Position numbers and translations under genes: made by a program
From: Candidatus Levyibacteriota bacterium
Lineage (GTDB): Bacteria > Patescibacteriota > Microgenomatia > Levybacterales > UBA12049
Direction: 5' to 3'
Length of the DNA: 64,000 bases
Assembly: GCA_041906785.1 (NCBI GenBank)
Contig: JAYRIM010000028.1
Span: 121,661-185,660 of the forward strand
Notes under the pieces: generated by a model
Database searches by the model: none
Seen by the model: only the letters and a program-made list of their open reading frames with translations
What the model was told of the DNA's origin: nothing
In this document: piece after piece, positions 38,557-54,172 of the stretch
Layout: the number at the start of each line of letters is the position of its first letter
How positions within the stretch are numbered: position 1 is the first letter of the stretch

Positions 38557-38964
38557 TTGTGTATGAGCCATGTCCTCTATAAAGAGCTCAGCTATGAAAT
38601 TGTTGGTGCATTATTTGAAGCCTATAATTCACTTGGTGCTAATTATCATGAAAGGTACTGCCAACGCGCTGTTGAGAAATTCTTAATTAAAAGGAATTTA
38701 AGGTATAAAAAAGAATATCCTGTTGATATTCTTCTTGAAGAAGATGTCATCGGTAAACACTATCTAGATTTTCTTATAAATGAAGTTGTTGTCTTAGAAA
38801 TTAAGAAAGGTAATAGATATAATATGTCAGATATAAAACAAGTTTTAATGTATTTAAAAACAACAGGGTTAAAACTTGGAATCTTGGCTTATTTTGGTAC
38901 TGATGGTGTATTCTATAAAAGAATAATCAATTCGCGAATTTCGCAAAAAGATTCGCATAATTAG
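38557..38964 (+). CDS. GxxExxY family protein (PD-(D/E)xK nuclease fold)
   Basis: IVGALFEAYNSLG (GxxExxY) ... VVLEIKKG ... TTGLKLGILAYFG are diagnostic of this family. Flanked by inverted CGAAT repeat arrays. Confidence 0.7.
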   Translation: MCMSHVLYKELSYEIVGALFEAYNSLGANYHERYCQRAVEKFLIKRNLRYKKEYPVDILLEEDVIGKHYLDFLINEVVVLEIKKGNRYNMSDIKQVLMYLKTTGLKLGILAYFGTDGVFYKRIINSRISQKDSHN

Positions 38965-39590
38965 TGAATATGAGAACATTTAAGACAGAAGGGATTGTTA
39001 TAAAGAGAAGGAATGTTGGCGAAGCAGATCGGATAATTACTATTTTTTCTAAAGATCATGGTAAATTACAAATAAAAGCTTCAGGTGTTAGAAAAATCAC
39101 AAGCCGCCGATCTCCTCATATCGAATTATTAAACTACGTTAATCTTACATTGTATACAGGTAAGACGTATCCTATATTAGTAGAAGCACAATCGAAAGAA
39201 AATTTTTCTACACTCAAAGAAGATTTACATAAAGTAGGACTCGCGTATCATATTTGTGAATTAATTGATGGTCTCTGCCCTGAAGGTCAGGAACACGAAT
39301 CAGTCTTTGAATTATTAAAAAGAACACTTGTCATCCTGAGTCCCGATGGATATCTGGGCGAAGGATCCCCAATGTACAATGATGCCGGAGATTCTTCGTC
39401 CTTCGACAAACTCACGACTCAGAATGACTTAGTTTTTATAATTCATGAATTTGAAGTAGAGCTTTTAGCATTGTTAGGTTATTGGAGAGGTTCACAAGAA
39501 GTAGCAAAAACGCTTGACACTCAACATATGATAGAGAATATTCTTGAAAGAAAATTAAAAAGCCGTAACATCTTCGCAAAACTTAGTTAA
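38964..39590 (+). CDS. recO: DNA repair protein RecO, carrying a 33-codon in-frame palindromic-element insertion
   Basis: MRTFKTEGIVIKRRNVGEADRIITIFSKDHGKLQIKASGVRK is the RecO N-terminal OB fold. Confidence 0.7.
   Translation: MNMRTFKTEGIVIKRRNVGEADRIITIFSKDHGKLQIKASGVRKITSRRSPHIELLNYVNLTLYTGKTYPILVEAQSKENFSTLKEDLHKVGLAYHICELIDGLCPEGQEHESVFELLKRTLVILSPDGYLGEGSPMYNDAGDSSSFDKLTTQNDLVFIIHEFEVELLALLGYWRGSQEVAKTLDTQHMIENILERKLKSRNIFAKLS
39330..39428. mobile_element. MITE-like palindromic element copy (99 nt, 33 codons), in frame inside recO
   Basis: Left arm GTCATCCTGAGTCCCGATGG; right arm ...GACTCAGAATGAC; GGATCC near the centre. Encodes VILSPDGYLGEGSPMYNDAGDSSSFDKLTTQND. Confidence 0.6.
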
Positions 39591-40549: not shown

Positions 40550-42055
40550 ATGGCTGAGAACATTATGGATAAAATTGTCGCACTTGCAAAACGCCGTGGG
40601 TTTATCTATCCAGGTTCAGATATATATGGTGGTCTGGCTAATACATATGACTATGGACCAATGGGTACTGAGTTACTCCGTAATATAAAAAATCTTTGGT
40701 GGAAAACATTTGTTCATAATAGAGAAGATATAGTAGGTCTTGATGCAAGTGTGATTTCTCATCATCGTATATGGGAAGCGTCTGGACATGCGACAGGGTT
40801 TTCCGATGCACTTGTTGATTGTAAAAAATGTAAAAACAGAAAACGAGCTGATCATCTAATAGAAGAGTGGTTAGAGGAACACAGTAAAGATGTCGATATT
40901 GATGTCATCTTGAGTGGAACGAAGGATCTTATGCAAGATTCTTCGCCAAGGGCTCAGAATGACAAGGCAGTCAAAATAACAAAAGAAGAGTTAGAAAAAG
41001 CTCTTGAACTTAAAAAAGTTGAAGGTTGGTCTGAAGAAAAGATGGATGAGTTTATTAAAAATACTCGTATTCCATGTCCTCAATGTAAAGCAGTTGATTG
41101 GACACCTGTGCGTAGATTTAACCTTCTTTTTCCGGTAAAGCTCGGAATTGTCGAAGGAGAACAAAGTCTGGCTTATCTTCGTGGAGAGACAGCCCAAGGA
41201 ATGTTTGTTGATTTTCGACACGTAGTCGATTCCACTCGTGTTCGTTTACCATTTGGTATCGCACAGTTAGGAAAAAGTTTTAGAAATGAAATAACGTTAG
41301 GTAATTCCGTCTTTAGAACAATAGAGTTTGAACAAGGAGAAATAGAATATTTCTTCGATCCGGAAAAAACACTTTGGGAGAAATTATTTGAAGAATGGAA
41401 GGAACAGATGTGGAATTTCGTTTTGTGGGAACTTGGAATTAATGAGAAAAATGTCAGATGGCGAGTACATACAGATGAAGAACGATCTTTTTATAGTAAA
41501 CGGACAGAAGATCTCGAGTATAATTTTCCTTTCGGATATAAAGAATTATGGGGATTAGCATATCGAACTGATTATGATTTAAAACAGCACATGCAGTTTT
41601 CAGGAAAAGATCTTTCTATCACTGATCCTTATACCCAAAAGAAAGTTATTCCTCATGTTATCGAGCCTGCTGTTGGTATTAACCGTTTGCTTTTGATGGT
41701 GTTATGTGAAGCATATTCTGAGATAGATGACCGGGTAGTGCTAAGTTTGAAACCAAAACTTGCTCCATATAAAGTCGCAGTATTTCCATTACTTGCGAAT
41801 AAAGAAGAATTAGTGAAAAAAGCGAGAGAAATCTACGGTTCTTTAAAGCCTCATATGAATATCGCATGGGATGATAGAGGAAATATTGGTAAAAGGTATT
41901 TATACCAAGATGAGATTGGTACACCATGGTGTGTTACAGTAGATTTTCAAACACTTGAAGATGGAACAGTAACTGTTCGCGATCGCGATACGGCAGAGCA
42001 AGAAAGAGTGAAAGTTGAAGAGCTTACAACACACTTTAATAGCAGGTTAGCATAA
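40550..42055 (+). CDS. glyQS: glycine--tRNA ligase (dimeric alpha2 class II type)
   Basis: GLANTYDYGPMGTELLRNIKNLWW, class II motifs, C-terminal anticodon-binding domain. Confidence 0.9.
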   Translation: MAENIMDKIVALAKRRGFIYPGSDIYGGLANTYDYGPMGTELLRNIKNLWWKTFVHNREDIVGLDASVISHHRIWEASGHATGFSDALVDCKKCKNRKRADHLIEEWLEEHSKDVDIDVILSGTKDLMQDSSPRAQNDKAVKITKEELEKALELKKVEGWSEEKMDEFIKNTRIPCPQCKAVDWTPVRRFNLLFPVKLGIVEGEQSLAYLRGETAQGMFVDFRHVVDSTRVRLPFGIAQLGKSFRNEITLGNSVFRTIEFEQGEIEYFFDPEKTLWEKLFEEWKEQMWNFVLWELGINEKNVRWRVHTDEERSFYSKRTEDLEYNFPFGYKELWGLAYRTDYDLKQHMQFSGKDLSITDPYTQKKVIPHVIEPAVGINRLLLMVLCEAYSEIDDRVVLSLKPKLAPYKVAVFPLLANKEELVKKAREIYGSLKPHMNIAWDDRGNIGKRYLYQDEIGTPWCVTVDFQTLEDGTVTVRDRDTAEQERVKVEELTTHFNSRLA

Positions 42056-46397: not shown

Positions 46398-46470
46398 AGG
46401 AGAGACAAAAGAGCCAAATGGGCCAAAGGTTTAGTACCCTTCTGTCTCTTTTGGCTCCTCGGTCCCATTT
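46398..46470. repeat. hairpin repeat family 2 (AATGGGCCAAAGG core), copy 1
   Basis: GAGACAAAAGAGCCAAATGGGCCAAAGGTTTAGTACCCTTCTGTCTCTTTTGGCTCC: an inverted repeat forming a long stem. Confidence 0.55.
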
Positions 46471-46898: not shown

Positions 46899-47411
46899 AT
46901 GAATAATCAAAAGTTATTTATTGGTTTTGGCATATTGTTAGTTGTACTCCTCCTTGGTGGTGGTTTATTTATTATGTCGTCCGGTAAAAAATCTAGCCAA
47001 TCTCCTACACCTTCTGCTGAGCAATTCATGATAGAAAAACTTTCTCCAGAAGATATTGGTCTAGAATTAATTCCAAAAACGCTTCCAAATGATGGAAAAC
47101 AGATAAAAGTTATAGTGAGTAAAGTTGCTGATATAAAACATTTAGCATATGAAATTACATACGAAGCAGATATTCCGAAAAGTGAATTGCCTCCAGGTGA
47201 GACAGAAGGACGTGTTGAGCGTGGTGTAGGAAATGATGATGTATCGATCAATTCATCTGATAAAAAATACGAATCGAAGTTTTTAGATTTCGGATCTGAG
47301 TCAAAAGGTGTGGTTCGATATGACACAGGAGTAACTGAAGCGAAGATCGTGATGAAAGTCACGAAACGGGACGGAAAAGTCTATCAGGTTGAAGATTCAG
47401 TGAAATTCTAA
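46899..47411 (+). CDS. secreted/membrane-anchored hypothetical protein
   Basis: N-terminal TM/signal (LFIGFGILLVVLLLGGGLFI); ATG at 46899 preferred over TTG at 46896. Confidence 0.4.
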   Translation: MNNQKLFIGFGILLVVLLLGGGLFIMSSGKKSSQSPTPSAEQFMIEKLSPEDIGLELIPKTLPNDGKQIKVIVSKVADIKHLAYEITYEADIPKSELPPGETEGRVERGVGNDDVSINSSDKKYESKFLDFGSESKGVVRYDTGVTEAKIVMKVTKRDGKVYQVEDSVKF

Positions 47412-47503
47412 TTGTTATATTGCTCTATTGTTATATTGTTAACTTCGCACAAGCGAAGTTTTTTATTTGTTTAGCAATAAAACAATACAACAATATAACA
47501 ATT
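47410..47503. repeat. intergenic TTGTTATATTG inverted-repeat element, copy C (longest, with a central stem-loop)
   Basis: AATTGTTATATTGCTCTATTGTTATATTGTTAACTTCGCACAAGCGAAGTT...AGCAATAAAACAATACAACAATATAACAATT. The central AACTTCGC-ACAA-GCGAAGTT hairpin is followed by TTTTTTATTTG. Confidence 0.6.
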
Positions 47504-48093: not shown

Positions 48094-48184
48094 TTTCCAG
48101 TTTCGAATTTCCAGTTGCCAATTAATTTGAAATTAATGAATTAATCAATTTACCGGAAATTGGAAAATCGAAATTCGAAACTAA
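48094..48184. repeat. ~90-bp imperfect palindrome filling the mraZ-rsmH spacer
   Basis: TTTCCAGTTTCGAATTTCCAGTTGCCAATTAATTTGAAATTAATGAATTAATCAATTTACCGGAAATTGGAAAATCGAAATTCGAAACT, centred on TTAATGAATTAA. Contains the TTTCCA(A/G) motif and its complement. Confidence 0.55.
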
Positions 48185-49057
48185 ATGGATACTTATCATA
48201 CACCTGTCCTTTTACAAGAAACAATTGAATTTTTAGATGTTCAGTCAGGAAAACGATACATTGATGCAACATTAGGTGGTGGTGGACATACTGAAGCTAT
48301 ACTGAAGCTTGGTGGTACTGTGTTGGGAATAGATACGGATGAAGAGGCTGTTACACACGTTCAAGAGAAACTAAAAATTAAAAACGAAAAAATAAAAATT
48401 ACTAAGGGGAATTTTAGGAATATTGACGAAATAGCAAGAGTGAATGGGTTTGAAAATGTAGATGGCATACTGTTTGACCTGGGTGTTTCAAGTCATCAAT
48501 TCGATAGCGCTGAACGGGGTTTTAGCTTTTTAAAAAAAGGACCATTAGATATGCGTATGGATCGAAGGCTTGGTGTAACTGCGAAAGATTTACTTGCGGT
48601 GCTATCTAAAACAGATCTGGCGAAATTATTTATAGAATACGGAGAAGAGCGATTCGCACATAAAATAGCTGATGCTATCGTAAAACGAAGAGAAATTAAG
48701 CCTATTGAAAGCACAGAAGAGTTAGAAGCATTAATTCGAATGGTAGTTCCTAAGAAGGAAGTCATCCATCCAGGAACACGGGTATTTCAGGCCTTACGAA
48801 TAGCAGTAAACACAGAACTTGAAAATATAGAAGAGGCATTGCCCAAAGCGATCGAATTAGTACACGTAAAAGGCAGAATTGCGGTTATCAGCTTTCATTC
48901 ATTGGAAGATAGAATTGTAAAACGTACATTTGCGGATTGGGAAGAAAATAACATTGGAAATATACTTACGAAGAAACCTGTGATACCAAGCGAAAAGGAG
49001 ATTGCAGAAAATCCTAGAAGCAGAAGCGCAAAATTAAGAGTTTTTGAAAAAATATGA
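48185..49057 (+). CDS. rsmH: 16S rRNA (cytosine1402-N4)-methyltransferase RsmH
   Basis: YIDATLGGGGHTEAIL ... FDLGVSSHQFD motifs. Confidence 0.9.
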   Translation: MDTYHTPVLLQETIEFLDVQSGKRYIDATLGGGGHTEAILKLGGTVLGIDTDEEAVTHVQEKLKIKNEKIKITKGNFRNIDEIARVNGFENVDGILFDLGVSSHQFDSAERGFSFLKKGPLDMRMDRRLGVTAKDLLAVLSKTDLAKLFIEYGEERFAHKIADAIVKRREIKPIESTEELEALIRMVVPKKEVIHPGTRVFQALRIAVNTELENIEEALPKAIELVHVKGRIAVISFHSLEDRIVKRTFADWEENNIGNILTKKPVIPSEKEIAENPRSRSAKLRVFEKI

Positions 49058-49329
49058 AAAAAAGATTTGTCGTCATTTTATTATCTATCACAATACTCCT
49101 TTCCTGTATCCATGTTGTGATATCTAATATGCTTTCGACTGCTGGGGTAGAACTCGATGAAATACAAGAAAAATTAACCCAATATAAAAAAGAAAATTTA
49201 TTACTTCATGAAGATATTTTAGAACATTCTTCTCTGTATTCTATTGCCTCTGCATCAGCGACAATGGGATTTGTCAGTGAAAAATCGCATGTTTATATTT
49301 CCGCGCCTTTACCACTCGCTAAAAGATAA
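49054..49329 (+). CDS. ftsL: FtsL-like small bitopic cell-division protein
   Basis: 91 aa with one TM plus a coiled region, located between rsmH and ftsI. Confidence 0.45.
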   Translation: MKKRFVVILLSITILLSCIHVVISNMLSTAGVELDEIQEKLTQYKKENLLLHEDILEHSSLYSIASASATMGFVSEKSHVYISAPLPLAKR

Positions 49330-49337
49330 TTTTTGAT

Positions 49338-49422
49338 AAGGAGTCAAAAGAGACAAAGGAGACAAATGGGCCAAAGGAATCTAACTTCTGTCCCTTCTGG
49401 TTCTTTGGTCTCTTTTGGTACC
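49338..49422. repeat. hairpin repeat family 2, copy 2 (between the ftsL-like gene and ftsI, overlapping the annotated ftsI 5' end)
   Basis: AGTCAAAAGAGACAAAGGAGACAAATGGGCCAAAGGAATCTAACTTCTGTCCCTTCTGGTTCTTTGGTCTCTTTTGG. Confidence 0.55.
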
Positions 49423-51115
49423 TTTTATTATGACTTTTCGTTATAGAAGCTTATTGGGATTTTTCGCTTGTATTTTCTTCATTATATTTGCGCGGTTATT
49501 CTATTGGCAGGTTGTTCGTGCACAAGAATTAGCAGAACTTGGAGAGATGCAATATGGCCAATTTATAAAACAGATTCCTAAACGAGGAGAAATACGCACG
49601 AGTGATAACTTTCCTATTGCCGCGAATAAAATAAATTACCTTGTTTTTCTTAATCCGAAAACAGTCCCAGATGATGAGAAAGAAAAAATTTCTCCATTAC
49701 TCGCGCCTCTACTCGAAGTAGATCCAGCAAGTATTAGTGCGAAACTTATGATGAACAGGTATTGGGTAGCCTTAAAACCAAATGTGGAACATTCGGTAAA
49801 AGAACAGATTGAAAAGCTCAAGTTACAAGGAATAGGATTCGAAGAACAAACAGTTCGGTTTTATCCAGAGGCTTCATTAGCAGCCAAATTAATAGGATTT
49901 GTCGGGAAAGATGATGAAGGAAATAATAAAGGGTATTTCGGATTAGAAGGATATTATGATCTACAGCTTTCAGGAAAACCTGGTTTGGCTATGCAGATAA
50001 AGGACGCGTTGGGAAGACCGATATTGGCCAAAATGAATAACAGTTCTGCAAAAGTGGACGGTAGAAATATTATTCTCTATGTAGACCGGAGTGTGCAGTT
50101 TATCCTTGAAGAGGAATTACGGAAAGGCCTAGAAAAATATGGCGCTCAAGGTGCTATGGGTGTCATTATGGACCCGAAAACCGGTGGCATTTTAGGAATG
50201 AGTGCTTTTCCGTCTTTCGACCAGCGAAATTTCCAAGAATATTCAAGTGATTTATATTTAAATCCTATCATTTCCAACGCTTATGAGCCCGGATCGACCT
50301 TTAAGCCACTTGTCATGGCTGCAGGAATAGATAGTGGCGTTGTAAAACCTGAAACCCAATGTCCTATTTGTGATAAGCCTGTTGAAATAGGGGGGTACAC
50401 TATAAAAACCTGGAATAATGAATACCAACCCGGTATTACAATGGCAAACGTCATCCGAGATTCTGATAATACAGGAATGGTTTATGTCTCACAAAAACTG
50501 GGATTAAAGAAAATGTATTCTTATTTAGAAAAATATGGTATAGGGTCTTTAACAGGAGTAGATCTTCAAGGCGAGATGTCCCCTGATTTACGTTCCATAG
50601 ATTCTTGGTACCCTATAGATGTTGCGACTGCAAGTTTCGGACAGGGAATATCTGTTACAGCGATTGAATTAGTAAGTGCTTTTGCAAGCTTAGCAAATGA
50701 TGGAAAACGTATGCAGCCGCATGTAGTCTCTAGTGTCGAGACCCCGGAAGGGGAAATTATTCCAATAGCACCGAAAGAAGTGAATCAAACAGTTTCGCCT
50801 ACGACGACGAAAATAATGCGGGAAATTTTAGTTAATGCTGTGAAAAAAGGCGAGGCTAAATGGGCTGCTCCGAAGGGATACAGAATCGCGGGGAAAACTG
50901 GTACTGCACAGATTCCTATTGAAGGTCATTATGATTCAGAAAAAACCATTGCGTCTTTCATAGGATATGCTCCAGCAGATGATCCGAAGTTTGTAATGTT
51001 GATAGTCTATGATCGTCCGACAAGTTCTATTTATGGATCGGAGACTGCAGCGCCGACGTTTTTTACTATTGCCACGAAATTATTAGCTTACTATAAAATT
51101 CCGCCATCAGAATAA
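49415..51115 (+). CDS. ftsI: peptidoglycan D,D-transpeptidase FtsI (class B PBP)
   Basis: STFKPLVMAAG (SxxK), SDN, KTGTAQ motifs; N-terminal TM. True start possibly ATG ~49430. Confidence 0.85.
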   Translation: MVPFIMTFRYRSLLGFFACIFFIIFARLFYWQVVRAQELAELGEMQYGQFIKQIPKRGEIRTSDNFPIAANKINYLVFLNPKTVPDDEKEKISPLLAPLLEVDPASISAKLMMNRYWVALKPNVEHSVKEQIEKLKLQGIGFEEQTVRFYPEASLAAKLIGFVGKDDEGNNKGYFGLEGYYDLQLSGKPGLAMQIKDALGRPILAKMNNSSAKVDGRNIILYVDRSVQFILEEELRKGLEKYGAQGAMGVIMDPKTGGILGMSAFPSFDQRNFQEYSSDLYLNPIISNAYEPGSTFKPLVMAAGIDSGVVKPETQCPICDKPVEIGGYTIKTWNNEYQPGITMANVIRDSDNTGMVYVSQKLGLKKMYSYLEKYGIGSLTGVDLQGEMSPDLRSIDSWYPIDVATASFGQGISVTAIELVSAFASLANDGKRMQPHVVSSVETPEGEIIPIAPKEVNQTVSPTTTKIMREILVNAVKKGEAKWAAPKGYRIAGKTGTAQIPIEGHYDSEKTIASFIGYAPADDPKFVMLIVYDRPTSSIYGSETAAPTFFTIATKLLAYYKIPPSE

Positions 51116-51117
51116 GT

Positions 51118-51184
51118 GTCATTCTGAGCGTAGCGAAGAATCCAAGAGGTCGTTTAAAAGATGTTTCGCTTCACTCAACATGAC
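51118..51184. mobile_element. short copy of the same palindromic element, immediately 5' of the GIY-YIG gene
   Basis: GTCATTCTGAGCGTAGCGAAGAATCC ... GATGTTTCGCTTCACTCAACATGAC. The GIY-YIG ATG (51180) lies in the right arm; the ftsI stop is 2 nt upstream of the left arm. Confidence 0.55.
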
Positions 51185-51467
51185 AAATATATATTGGGTT
51201 TATATTCTAACGAACTGGAACAATAAAGTACTCTATGTTGGTGTAACCAATAATTTAATTAAAAGAATATATGGACATAAAAATAAATTAGTTGAAGGAT
51301 TTAGCAGTAAATATAACCTTACTAAGTTAGTATATTTTGAAGAGTTCAATTATATAAATGATGCGATTGCAGCTGAGAAAAAAATTAAAGGATGGGTGAG
51401 GATTAAGAAGAATAAACTAATTGAATCAGTGAATCCAGAGTGGGAAGATTTGACTTTGTCATTCTGA
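51180..51467 (+). CDS. GIY-YIG nuclease-domain protein (stand-alone, 95 aa)
   Basis: IYWVYILTNWNNKVLYVGVTNNLIKRIYGHK matches the GIY-x10-YIG core. Its start and stop codons lie inside palindromic element arms. Confidence 0.8.
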   Translation: MTNIYWVYILTNWNNKVLYVGVTNNLIKRIYGHKNKLVEGFSSKYNLTKLVYFEEFNYINDAIAAEKKIKGWVRIKKNKLIESVNPEWEDLTLSF

Positions 51468-51554
51468 GTGAAACGAAGAATCTTTCGTAATTGATAAGAT
51501 CCTTGCGCCACCGCTAAAGCTTTAGCGACACGCGGTCACTTCGTTCAGGATGAC
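51458..51554. mobile_element. palindromic element copy immediately 3' of the GIY-YIG gene
   Basis: GTCATTCTGAGTGAAACGAAGAATCT ... GTCACTTCGTTCAGGATGAC with an internal perfect palindrome CGCTAAAGCTTTAGCG. The GIY-YIG stop TGA is the TCTGA of the left arm. Confidence 0.6.
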
Positions 51555-51556
51555 AT

Positions 51557-51886
51557 TTATTTGATTGATGTTCCTGGGGGGACTTGGTCGTCTATTTTTA
51601 AGGGTAATGGTTTTTCGCCATCTGCTGCGAGGATCATTCCTTGGGATTCTTCACCCATAAGCTTTCGTGGTTCTAGATTGATAACGAAAATAAATTGTTT
51701 ACCAACTAATTCTTCAGGTTGGTACCAAGGAGCAATACCGCTTAAAATATTTCGAATACCTTCTTCACCAAAATCCACAGTTAGTCTAAGCAATTTTTCA
51801 GATCCTTCTTTACGAACACATTCGTTAATAGTCCCAACGCGAAGGTCAAGTTTTGCGAAATCATCAAATGTTATAGTAGGTTTCAT
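51557..51886 (-). CDS. tRNA-binding domain protein (CsaA/Trbp111-like EMAP-II fold)
   Basis: DLRVGTINECVRKEGSEKLLRLTVDFGEE ... is typical of the tRNA_bind OB fold. Confidence 0.7.
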   Translation of the reverse strand: MKPTITFDDFAKLDLRVGTINECVRKEGSEKLLRLTVDFGEEGIRNILSGIAPWYQPEELVGKQFIFVINLEPRKLMGEESQGMILAADGEKPLPLKIDDQVPPGTSIK

Positions 51887-52176
51887 GTTTTCCTCTTTCT
51901 TTTTTTTGGCAGAGCATGCGTCATCCGTTCTAATGAAGCTCCGATATTATACGCGATCCACATATAAAAAAGAAGCGTGGTTGGGAAAACAAACAGAAGG
52001 AAAGGATAGGTAATAATATGAAACATTTGGCCGAGCATGAAAAAGGGAAAGTTGAAAATTATCAAGCTATAACCACATGAAATCTTACATGACATTTCGC
52101 TGATAAGAATGATGATACTAACTATAAGAACACTAAAACCAAACACTTTACCTATTAAAGAAGGAAACCTACTCAT
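51883..52176 (-). CDS. small membrane protein (hypothetical)
   Basis: 97 aa, 3 TM helices. Confidence 0.3.
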   Translation of the reverse strand: MSRFPSLIGKVFGFSVLIVSIIILISEMSCKISCGYSLIIFNFPFFMLGQMFHIITYPFLLFVFPTTLLFYMWIAYNIGASLERMTHALPKKRKRKT

Positions 52177-52864: not shown

Positions 52865-54172
52865 ATGTGGCAATCACTGAAGAACACCTACCATCTTGCC
52901 CAGTCTTTTTTGGCGAACGTCTATTATGGATTTCCGGCAAAAAAACTGACTATTATCGGTGTGACCGGTACGAGTGGTAAAACGACAACTGCTTTAATGA
53001 TCTATTCGATGCTGCAAGCCGCAGGGTATAAAGTCTCTGTGTTAACGACTATTAAAGCTATAATCGCTGGAAAAGAGTATGATACAGGTTTTCATGTGAC
53101 GACACCTGATCCTCACGTTCTTCCTAAATATCTAAAACAAGCTGTAGATAATGGTGACACACATTTCGTCCTTGAAGTTTCTTCTCACGCTCTCGATCAG
53201 AACCGTGCTGCTTTTGTGCCTTTTAAGATTGGAGTTCTTACAACATTGGCACATGAGCATTTAGATTATCATAAAACTTTCATAAATTATGCTCGAGCGA
53301 AATTTAAGCTATTATTCGCATCAGAATGCTCCGTTTTGCCTAAGGGTTTATTTAATAATGCAGAAATTAGAGATTTACTGGATGATCTTACAAAAAAGAA
53401 AAAAATAAAAACATTTGGTCTGAATTCTGGAGAAGAAACACAAAAAAAATGGCATTTTAAACTGACAATGCCAGGTGAATATAGTTTACGTAATGCATTG
53501 GCTGCTGCAACTGTAGGAGATTACCTTGGGATAGATAAAAAAACGATCACTGAAGCGCTTGAGAATTTTTCAGCAATACCTGGAAGATTTGAAGAAATTC
53601 CAAACAGACGAGGTTTACGTATTATTATTGATTTCGCGCATAAACCAGACGCACTTGAGGCTGTTTTACATGTTGCACGATCTCTTGTGAAAGAGAAAGA
53701 AAAGGTGATTGTTTTATACGGATGTGCAAGTGAACGCGATGTATTAAAGCGGCCAATTATGGGGAAAATAAGCGGCCTCTTATCAGATGTGACCGTATTG
53801 ACAGATGAAGATCCACGAAGAGAAGATCCAATGAAAATAATTGATGAAATAGCACAGGGGTGTCTTGAAAGTGGTGCTAAGGAAGGTGTCATTCTGAGCG
53901 ATAGCGAAGAATCTAATGGCGATTTGTACAAAGTTGCAGGGGATCCTTCGTCCGATGGGAATCGGACTCAGGATGACAAACAACATATATTTTTTAAAAT
54001 TCCAAATAGAGAGGAAGCGATTGACTTTGCAATTAATACAATTGCAAGAAAAGGAGATATCATTCTACTTTGTGGAAAAGGACATGAGCAGTCGATGAAC
54101 TATAATGGCGTTGAGAAACCTTGGAGTGAACACAAAGCAGTAGAAAAAGCATTGAATAAAAAAGATTTATGA
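52865..54172 (+). CDS. murE: UDP-N-acetylmuramoyl-tripeptide synthetase MurE-like Mur ligase, with a ~30-aa in-frame palindromic-element insertion near the C-terminus
   Basis: GVTGTSGKTTT P-loop; C-terminal CGKGHEQ; sits within the dcw cluster. Confidence 0.8.
   Translation: MWQSLKNTYHLAQSFLANVYYGFPAKKLTIIGVTGTSGKTTTALMIYSMLQAAGYKVSVLTTIKAIIAGKEYDTGFHVTTPDPHVLPKYLKQAVDNGDTHFVLEVSSHALDQNRAAFVPFKIGVLTTLAHEHLDYHKTFINYARAKFKLLFASECSVLPKGLFNNAEIRDLLDDLTKKKKIKTFGLNSGEETQKKWHFKLTMPGEYSLRNALAAATVGDYLGIDKKTITEALENFSAIPGRFEEIPNRRGLRIIIDFAHKPDALEAVLHVARSLVKEKEKVIVLYGCASERDVLKRPIMGKISGLLSDVTVLTDEDPRREDPMKIIDEIAQGCLESGAKEGVILSDSEESNGDLYKVAGDPSSDGNRTQDDKQHIFFKIPNREEAIDFAINTIARKGDIILLCGKGHEQSMNYNGVEKPWSEHKAVEKALNKKDL
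53888..53976. mobile_element. palindromic element copy inserted in frame inside murE
   Basis: GTCATTCTGAGCGATAGCGAAGAATCT ... GGATCCTTCGTCCGATGGGAATCGGACTCAGGATGAC. Encodes the extra loop VILSDSEESNGDLYKVAGDPSSDGNRTQDD, which is absent from canonical MurE. Confidence 0.6.

Follow-up and report, generated by a model that had tools for sequence, protein, structure and literature searches.

Nuclease gene and flanking hairpin doublets

The DNA analyzed here, referred to as the window, is a 64,000-nucleotide stretch of contig JAYRIM010000028.1 from Candidatus Levyibacteriota bacterium (GenBank assembly GCA_041906785.1, positions 121,661 to 185,660), and at window positions 51117-51555 it contains a unit in which a short open reading frame (ORF) for a GIY-YIG nuclease lies between two copies of a palindromic repeat. 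Motif searching recovered five paired copies of this repeat in the window (A to E, 60-99 bp in length), each consisting of two inverted hairpins and hereafter called a doublet. The unit and its neighbors are composed as follows.

51118-51184, unstranded (feature span 51117..51185): copy C, a gene-less hairpin doublet of 67 bp directly upstream of the GIY-YIG ORF
51118-51142: left arm of copy C, GTCATTCTGAG-CGTAG-CGAAGAATC, in full GTCATTCTGAGCGTAGCGAAGAATC
51143-51159: spacer of copy C, 17 nt, CAAGAGGTCGTTTAAAA, with AAGAGGT inside
51160-51184: right arm of copy C, GATGTTTCG..CAACATGAC, in full GATGTTTCGCTTCACTCAACATGAC, holding the ATG of the ORF
51180..51467, plus strand: GIY-YIG nuclease gene (ORF with PF01541 match), 95 aa, standalone, of predicted Slx1-like/UPF0213 type
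51458-51554, unstranded (feature span 51457..51555): copy D, a hairpin doublet of 97 bp directly downstream of the ORF
51458-51482: left arm of copy D, GTCATTCTGAG-TGAAA-CGAAGAATC, with the TGA inside
51498-51554: right arm of copy D, with a long apical stem and terminal TTCAGGATGAC
49415..51115, plus strand: left neighbor, a PBP/FtsI-type transpeptidase gene (PBP_dimer and Transpeptidase domains recorded on the identical gene in locus L001)
51557..51886, minus strand: right neighbor, a convergent gene with a tRNA-binding domain (PF01588, E = 9e-27)

Both ends of the reading frame are embedded in arms. The right arm of copy C ends in CAACATGAC (51176-51184), whose terminal ATGAC contains the ATG of the ORF (51180-51182), and the TGA (51465-51467) falls within the second GTCATTCTGAG (51458-51468), i.e. 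in the left arm of copy D. These coordinates bear out a preliminary description of this DNA, according to which two copies of a palindrome abut a 95-aa GIY-YIG ORF and hold its start and stop codons. The first GTCATTCTGAG starts at 51118, preceded by a T at 51117, and the stop codon of the PBP/FtsI gene (51113-51115) lies two bases earlier; the stop codon of the tRNA-binding gene is likewise two bases beyond the end of copy D (51554), so that the doublet-ORF-doublet unit fills the whole intergenic space. No ORF other than the GIY-YIG gene was found inside 51117-51555, and a scan for promoters and terminators over 50900-51900 returned nothing above shuffles. The right arm of copy C is degenerate in appearance but is actually compensated (ATGTT/AACAT), and the homologous right arm in locus L082 reads ATGCT/AGCAT.

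The repeat recurs far beyond expectation. Allowing at most one mismatch, GTCATYCTGAR has 15 matches in the window against 3.7 +/- 2.1 in shuffled sequences (0 of 100 shuffles reach 15), and a structural arm pattern applied to the window together with related loci (~1.2 Mb) gave 522 matches compared to six in reversed-sequence controls. Whole elements fold as long hairpins with z scores of -0.9 to -4.0, the latter being that of copy B folded as DNA. The preliminary description had proposed an imperfect palindrome of ~90-100 bp in at least four copies; its recurrence holds, while the count becomes five, the sizes extend from 60 to 99 bp, and the anatomy of a single palindrome gives way to an inverted pair of hairpins.

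Arm hairpins, nuclease and their joint distribution

Each arm is a small hairpin in its own right, TGTCAT-NNN-GA-[2-bp stem + GNA triloop]-GA-N'N'N'-ATC, and the module including its ends reads (Y)TGTCAT-NNN-GA-[apical stem + GNA-type triloop]-GA-N'N'N'-ATC-TT, so that the repeat as a whole consists of two inverted hairpins with the sharp limits TGTCAT...ATGACA. Directly before TCAT, T and G are present in 94% and 99% of the arms, with only a bias for Y one base further out (position -3), and the two T residues after ATC are present in 88% and 72%. Arm sequences vary by lineage (GTCATTCTGAG/GAAGAATC, GTCATTTCGAC/GAGAAATC, GTCATCCTGAG/GAAGGATC, GTCATTCCGAG/GAGGAATC and others), and in every variant the triplet following TCAT is complementary to the triplet preceding ATC within the same arm. 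Complementary triplets of at least nine types occupy 471 of the 564 sites matching TCAT-N3-GA..GA-N3-ATC, where 1.6% is expected. The central 7-mers, most of which form a 2-bp stem with a GNA triloop (GCGAAGC, GCGCAGC, GCGTAGC, CCGAAGG, GTGAAAC, ACGAAGT), covary as well, and longer arms carry longer apical stems that are compensated. All five copies in the window have self-complementary arm hairpins. The apical parts GCGAAGC, GCGTAGC and GCGATAGC, among others, correspond to the mini-hairpin DNA sequences GCGNAGC and GCGNNAGC, which have been described as extraordinarily stable (PMC13037366). An Rfam scan of the window and five related loci found only tRNAs and no family for the hairpins.

Covariation was evaluated in a set of 81 distinct 28-nt arms with the structure ....(((((..((...))..)))))..., in which 96.5% of the cells are paired and compensatory changes occur at all five variable pairs. 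Double-sided changes number 130, compared to 38.6 +/- 10.3 in shuffles (none of 500 reaching the observed value) and at most 19 in slid controls, and the test is not circular because the pattern used to select the arms imposed no complementarity. Moreover, the left and right triplets differ in 78 of 109 short units and yet each arm is self-complementary, with 56 mixed TCT/CCT pairs against nine of the same type, which argues for selection on each arm hairpin and not on pairing between left and right arms. Covariation alone is the same for a folded RNA and for folded single-stranded DNA.

The 95-aa protein matches PF01541 (GIY-YIG) over residues 5-75 (E = 6.7e-15). An alignment of 27 homologs shows no variation at Y19, G21, R29, H33, E66 and N85 and almost none at Y8; N85 aside, we take this set to cover the catalytic positions common to the GIY-YIG fold (GIY Tyr, YIG Tyr/Gly, Arg, Glu). 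Among solved structures, sequence profiles matched only the UPF0213 proteins BH0048 (1zg2, 1.1e-6) and EF2693 (1ywl, 2.5e-4), and Foldseek, queried with an AlphaFold2 (AF2) model having a predicted local distance difference test score (pLDDT) of 92, ranked 1zg2 first, with Slx1 entries next, complexes with branched and 5'-flap DNA among them, and the N-terminal domain of UvrC after those. Neither domain profile searches nor the AF2 model disclosed a second domain, and the nuclease has no match in PADLOC or PHROGs, hence no pointer to a known defence system or phage family. Judged by profiles and predicted structure, the protein belongs to the standalone Slx1-like (UPF0213) branch of GIY-YIG proteins and not to the homing endonuclease or UvrC branch. 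Standalone bacterial proteins of this kind have been described as the minimal GIY-YIG domain of the Slx1 branch and treated as repair proteins, with no mention of repeats (PMC1564403, Dunin-Horkawicz et al.). Several homologs are longer than the protein of the window, and their ends (...DPSLRSG or ...SFASAQDD) or starts (...VILSGTKDL) are translated arms.

The coupling of gene and arms extends across many phyla, with the protein 60-82% identical between them. A homolog search gave at least 1685 matches at E <= 0.001, the best 120 of which are 64-82% identical to the protein of the window and include sequences from Patescibacteria, Smithella and Bacillota. In a scan for relatives with one genome per GTDB species, at least 573 loci were confirmed, and the best 80 (80 genomes, 86 genes, 56-78% identity) were analyzed; they derive from Gammaproteobacteria, Bacillota, Ignavibacteria, Chloroflexi, Planctomycetota, Actinomycetota, Zixibacteria, Desulfobacterota-type lineages, Bdellovibrionota and Patescibacteria. 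The system is specific neither to the candidate phyla radiation (CPR) nor to low-GC genomes, the setting in which the preliminary description had placed it. The recurring layout in these loci is TGTCATTCTGAG-CGAAG-CGAAGAATC, TTAA(A/G)GAGGT, the ORF, and GATTCTTCG-CTTCG-CTCAGAATGACA, the gene usually lying ~15-20 nt past the left arm and 10-25 nt ahead of the right arm. Under a strict pattern, 52 of 85 genes have a left arm as their nearest arm upstream and 47 of 85 have a right arm as their nearest downstream; under a relaxed pattern an arm is present within 150 nt of 78 of 86 genes. Close to the gene there are 4.46 arms per kb, compared to 0.36 per kb in the rest of the same loci, a 12-fold difference, and these figures sustain the proposal that palindromic element and GIY-YIG gene belong together. 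Protein identity is also higher between units sharing the arm triplet than between others (69.2% vs 65.2%, permutation 0/500).

The nearest relatives of the window's gene occupy other neighborhoods. The homolog P0002 (82% identical, L082) is located between carA and carB in the same doublet-ORF-doublet arrangement, and P0007 (74% identical, L084) between a cupin gene and tsaC. The earlier claim that the gene is bracketed by two complete copies applies only to the sub-lineage of the window; the common arrangement is one gene between one left and one right arm. Several loci have two copies of the gene and one genome occurs three times among the top 80 loci, while the window has a single nuclease gene and five doublets. 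A phage-borne element as the main vehicle was rejected on account of the rarity of the nuclease family in viral contigs, only about nine close relatives being found among 2.9 million. Previous work lists GIY-YIG genes among predicted transfers from Patescibacteria to other bacteria (PMC12455944) and reports non-intron insertions encoding GIY-YIG proteins in CPR rRNA genes (PMC11270868).

Gene-less doublets and copies inside protein genes

Doublets without a gene far outnumber the nuclease genes in the loci examined, and occur far from them and inside coding sequences. The 109 short units distribute over the length classes modulo 3 as 43:31:35, with no frame bias, and minimal doublets have spacers of 3-4 nt (TAA, TTAG, TAAA). 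A Syntrophomonadaceae genome (JBMNGL01) contains more than 15 near-identical doublets within ~60 kb, with a conserved 29-nt spacer and duplicated partial termini. Three contigs of this genome (L016, L018 and L020) have 12-14 kb in common at >=85% identity, a large segmental repeat densely populated by elements, and on each of them there is a GIY-YIG gene together with many doublets that have the 29-nt spacer. Copy C of the window still has AAGAGGT, which in gene-carrying copies at other loci is the ribosome-binding motif ahead of the gene, and this fits a derivation of doublets such as copy C from gene-carrying units through loss of the ORF.

Arm termini are also found in tandem. Just before carB in L082 (10440-10545) there are five solo right-arm termini, (G)CTCAGGATGACA plus ~11 nt, with a period of 23; a Varibaculum genome (L003, 10030-10200) has at least five tandem copies of AAAAGATTCTTCGCTGTACTCAGAATGACAAGTG, and repeats of partial left termini occur likewise in L058, L065 and L016/L020. 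In Anaerolineales (L067, 8464-8867), a tandem row of five doublets, four measuring 75 bp and one 68 bp, lies in a long open frame 3' of an N6_N4 DNA methylase domain, this frame being either a genuine C-terminal extension or a spurious ORF.

Three of the five window copies are located inside protein genes, in frame.

39330-39428, unstranded: copy A, 99 bp, RecO residues 123-155 (VILSPDG...TTQND)
40904-40963, unstranded: copy B, 60 bp, glycine--tRNA ligase (GlyRS) residues 119-138 (VILSGTKDLMQDSSPRAQND)
53888-53977, unstranded: copy E, 90 bp, MurE residues 342-371 (VILSDSEES...RTQDD)
38964..39590, plus strand: RecO gene, host of copy A (TIGR00613, E = 1.6e-27)
40550..42055, plus strand: GlyRS gene, host of copy B (NF003211, E = 3.5e-183)
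52865..54172, plus strand: MurE-type Mur ligase gene, host of copy E (TIGR01085, E = 2.2e-101)

The in-frame insertions in recO and murE had been noticed in the preliminary description and are confirmed here, and the GlyRS insertion is added to them. In RecO, the matches to hidden Markov models and the alignment to Deinococcus radiodurans RecO (1u5k) end at residues 122-126, and copy A begins at residue 123. GlyRS residues 107-172, within which copy B lies, correspond to only 14 residues in 8u2q, and in the alignment of MurE to 4bub (query residues 14-332 and 371-431) the intervening 38 residues correspond to a single residue of the structure. The closest MurE orthologs, P0122 and P0123 (71% and 67% identical), lack the VILS...QDDK segment. 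Absent from these orthologs and from solved homologs, the segments in RecO, GlyRS and MurE are additions relative to their homologs. In the AF2 model of MurE, residues 361-370 have a pLDDT of 44 and residues 341-360 of ~70, compared to 84-93 in the adjoining blocks, the insert being the least confident stretch of an otherwise confident model.

A search for an empty site in MurE orthologs found the element missing but the surface loop variable, with independent element-like inserts in the Levybacteria-type orthologs P0128 ('VILSDSEES...DQDD') and P0140 ('SHPELVSGS...VRHDK'); by sequence, the loop (window 53860-53990) has the look of a hotspot for insertions and not of an empty site in the strict sense. 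Many other MurE orthologs have a low-complexity stretch, 'Q(M/I)SN(I/L)K(Y/F)(Q/P)(I/M)S', in this loop, possibly a different repeat in translation.

Two further gene-internal copies were found in other genomes, namely a 54-bp copy in frame in topoisomerase I (TopA) of another Patescibacteria genome (L073, 'VILSKAKDLDSSAAPQNDNK') and a 99-bp copy in an Eco57I-like methylase gene of a Bacteriovoracaceae genome (L074). In all five copies whose host gene could be recognised the length is divisible by three (99, 60, 90, 54 and 99 bp), and all are read in the one frame that gives VIL/VIS...NDK; one alternative frame has a TGA in TCATTCTGA. The multiples of three and the single frame point to translation through the element rather than removal, and splicing-out of the gene-internal copies was rejected, since all five are multiples of 3 bp against no such bias overall. 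The parallel to Rickettsia palindromic elements that had been drawn for this repeat is upheld by the in-frame copies in RecO, GlyRS and MurE, which homologs lack, and also by those in TopA and the Eco57I-like methylase.

Locus L001, from another assembly, is 99.96% identical to window positions 48925-51556, with one G>A change in the last arm, and then diverges completely; the break lies exactly past the ATGACAT of copy D and leads into unrelated DNA (L001 2620-3024). In L127 (1960-1985), from the same Logan sample (SRR26835457), the contig with the tRNA-binding gene breaks off after 12 nt of the right arm of copy D. The L001 junction reflects either a rearrangement in a strain, located at the end of the element, or another copy of D's right arm in the sample. 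Two Zixibacteria species (L040, 2700-3420; L053, 4546-5270) have a cluster [L-R][L-ORF-R][L-R][L-R] in the same place, 97% identical compared to 87-91% for the flanking genes, a difference indicating purifying selection, gene conversion or recent exchange.

The window also has other inverted repeats. A second, unrelated palindromic repeat (GAGACAAAAGAGCCAAATGGG / CCCTTCTGTCTCTTTTGGCTC-like) lies at 46402-46464 and 49338-49424, one copy being just 5' of the start of the PBP gene. The segments 48099-48182 and 47410-47503 comprise a spacerless AT-rich palindrome of 84 nt, 74% complementary, and near it an AT-rich inverted repeat of 33 nt, 88% complementary, with a 28-nt loop.

Interpretation and comparison with known systems

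The observed arm structure, gene coupling, broad distribution and protein inserts probably have a common origin, in that window 51117-51555 would be a gene-carrying copy of a widespread selfish family of hairpin-pair repeats, mobilised by or co-propagating with the GIY-YIG nuclease. Nuclease gene and hairpins are inherited and spread together. The nuclease, like Slx1, would read the structure of DNA and not its sequence, and would recognise and cut the base of hairpins that are extruded or exposed in single strands; such breaks could let host replication or repair copy or move both the gene-carrying units and the gene-less doublets, and in this way drive the propagation of the family. Gene-less doublets build up in intergenic DNA, and in compact CPR genomes they are also present in essential proteins, presumably translated as loops of 20-33 residues in tolerant surface regions. 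The closest analogue is the system of repetitive extragenic palindromic (REP) doublets (REPINs) with their REP-associated tyrosine transposases (RAYTs), and not a classical transposable element of the miniature inverted-repeat type (MITE) bounded by terminal inverted repeats (TIRs), because the covariation is that of a separate hairpin in every arm. The earlier proposal of an autonomous GIY-YIG element that spawns MITEs is accordingly retained in part: the gene-less copies are MITE-like and multi-copy, the classical TIR-MITE anatomy does not apply, and mobility, with the nuclease in the role of a transposase, is at present a suggestion.

Several results weigh against mobilisation by the nuclease. 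We know of no GIY-YIG enzyme that acts as a transposase, and the 95-aa protein has no additional DNA-binding or strand-transfer domain. Comparison of arm flanks revealed no target-site duplication and nothing conserved or duplicated outside TG...CA, and no clean pair of filled and empty sites was found between near-identical genomes; L078/L079 and L040/L053 are syntenic through the unit with no clean indel. The L001 junction could reflect recombination or an assembly path through a second copy, and the positional conservation of the Zixibacteria cluster means that a unit can persist vertically, as REPIN-RAYT systems do. For eight of the 86 genes the nearest 150 nt are free of arms, and two loci lack arms altogether. 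Isolated arms are weak in the nearest-neighbor model (-1 to -10 kcal/mol, mostly no different from shuffles), for which reason the structural evidence is drawn from covariation and energies were not used, and T.G and C.A mismatches in the arms (10 vs 6) are counts that do not separate the two strands, or RNA from DNA, as the folding molecule.

A different origin, which we consider unlikely, is homing, in which a free-standing GIY-YIG homing gene would target the center of an empty doublet and be copied in by double-strand-break repair while the doublets spread by other means. Such a model accommodates the usual position of the gene exactly between a left and a right arm, the 3-4 nt spacers of minimal doublets could be the uninterrupted target, and GIY-YIG homing endonucleases are well known (PMC1564403). 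The nuclease, however, lacks the sequence-specific DNA-binding domain typical of GIY-YIG homing enzymes and falls in the Slx1-like branch instead, the gene of the window and of L082 lies between two complete doublets and not within one, and the spread of the doublets would be left without explanation.

Less probable again is a domesticated host system, with REP-like repeats serving structural or regulatory functions (mRNA ends, supercoiling, replication) and an Slx1-like nuclease that, as a host maintenance enzyme, processes or controls them and descends mainly vertically, as has been proposed for RAYTs. The conserved position and identity of the Zixibacteria cluster agree with it, as does the single gene copy beside five doublets in the window, and prokaryotic Slx1-like proteins have been read as repair proteins of mostly vertical descent (PMC1564403). 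Against this, identity across phyla is very high and close relatives occur in different contexts, several loci hold two gene copies and one genome appears thrice in the top 80, GIY-YIG genes are among the predicted transfers from Patescibacteria to other bacteria (PMC12455944), and insertions into the coding sequences of essential genes resemble a cost more than a service.

A role at the RNA level, with the hairpins as 5' leader and 3' stabiliser or terminator of the GIY-YIG mRNA and the gene-less copies as incidental relics, seems very improbable. The left arm is indeed followed by TTAAGAGGT, which resembles a ribosome-binding site, the right arm follows the stop codon, and covariation is as compatible with RNA as with single-stranded DNA. 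Right arms, however, give this same hairpin when read from the other strand, and such symmetry is what DNA ends would show; the gene-less doublets outnumber the genes, lie far away from them and occur in coding sequences; the 50900-51900 scan found no terminator-like T-run, and no Rfam family was matched. Lastly, chance or composition, by which the motif would be a frequent word of a low-GC genome, has only the shortness of the core motif in its favor and is excluded by the shuffles, the reversed controls, the covariation and the recurrence of the arms beside the same gene in 80 genomes.

If the selfish hairpin-pair reading is correct, the family may, more tentatively and with some doubt on our part, represent a new class of prokaryotic mobile element, having as its sole protein a minimal, structure-specific Slx1-like GIY-YIG nuclease, with self-folding hairpin ends, a cross-phylum distribution, large populations of gene-less doublets and loops in essential proteins of CPR bacteria; it may also explain the GIY-YIG insertions in CPR rRNA genes. 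What seems new is a REPIN- or MITE-like repeat with a new type of partner enzyme. A full-text search of literature mostly outside the subscription journals turned up nothing that connects GIY-YIG genes of bacteria with hairpin repeats of the REP or MITE kind, and Rfam, PADLOC and PHROGs give no description either, in line with the preliminary remark that no GIY-YIG-associated MITE system is known in a low-GC CPR-like genome. Should the hairpins be mobilised by the nuclease, prokaryotic mobility would have a further enzymatic route in GIY-YIG, besides DDE, HUH, tyrosine and serine recombinases, Cas1 and reverse transcriptase. This would give a biological function to UPF0213, the bacterial branch of Slx1-like proteins, which is very common under the name 'GIY-YIG nuclease family protein', and would explain recurrent annotated peptide tails (VILS...QNDK, ...DPSLRSG). 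The family would also constitute a second, independent case besides Rickettsia of palindromic repeats translated inside essential proteins. With a protein of 95 aa and a hairpin substrate of 25 nt, the idea is directly testable.

Free-standing GIY-YIG homing endonucleases and Slx1 share the catalytic fold of the nuclease; Slx1 cuts branched and stem-loop DNA by structure, and homing endonuclease genes are selfish and reside inside their own target. The nuclease of the window differs in lacking a DNA-binding domain, of NUMOD type or other, an intron or intein context, an Slx4 partner and a RING domain, and its 'target' would itself be a dispersed repeat. Elements of the IS200/IS605 insertion sequence (IS) family are likewise small, with hairpin ends, no target-site duplication and no true TIR requirement, and their end hairpins are recognised as folded single-stranded DNA; they employ a Y1 HUH enzyme in place of GIY-YIG, and the unit of the window has no TnpA Y1 ORF or domain and no TnpB-like partner, while its ends are the same hairpin inverted. 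IS-derived bacterial MITEs are similarly short, multi-copy and non-coding with inverted ends, and are related to a gene-carrying version, copy C resembling a copy that lost its ORF. In the window family no target-site duplication is seen, the ends are self-folding hairpins instead of plain transposase-binding TIRs, and these ends are common to gene-carrying copies whose protein is of no known transposase type.

Rickettsia palindromic elements resemble the gene-internal copies as palindromes of ~60-100 bp in frame in essential genes, presumably translated as loops and missing from orthologs. To our knowledge they occur in Rickettsia only and no gene for a nuclease or transposase goes with them, in contrast to the coupled, conserved nuclease gene and the many phyla of the window family, and the likeness is one of analogy only, since host lineage and motif differ. 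Compared to REP/REPIN-RAYT systems, the partner is an Slx1-like GIY-YIG protein where RAYT is an HUH/Y1 (IS200-like) enzyme, there is no GTAG/CGTC tag, and the family spans many phyla at 60-80% protein identity and has in-frame copies in genes. Both nevertheless are built from a short-hairpin unit and an inverted doublet with a spacer, place a nuclease gene between flanking hairpins, leave no target-site duplication, have gene-less units far in excess of genes, and can be conserved as a cluster between species.

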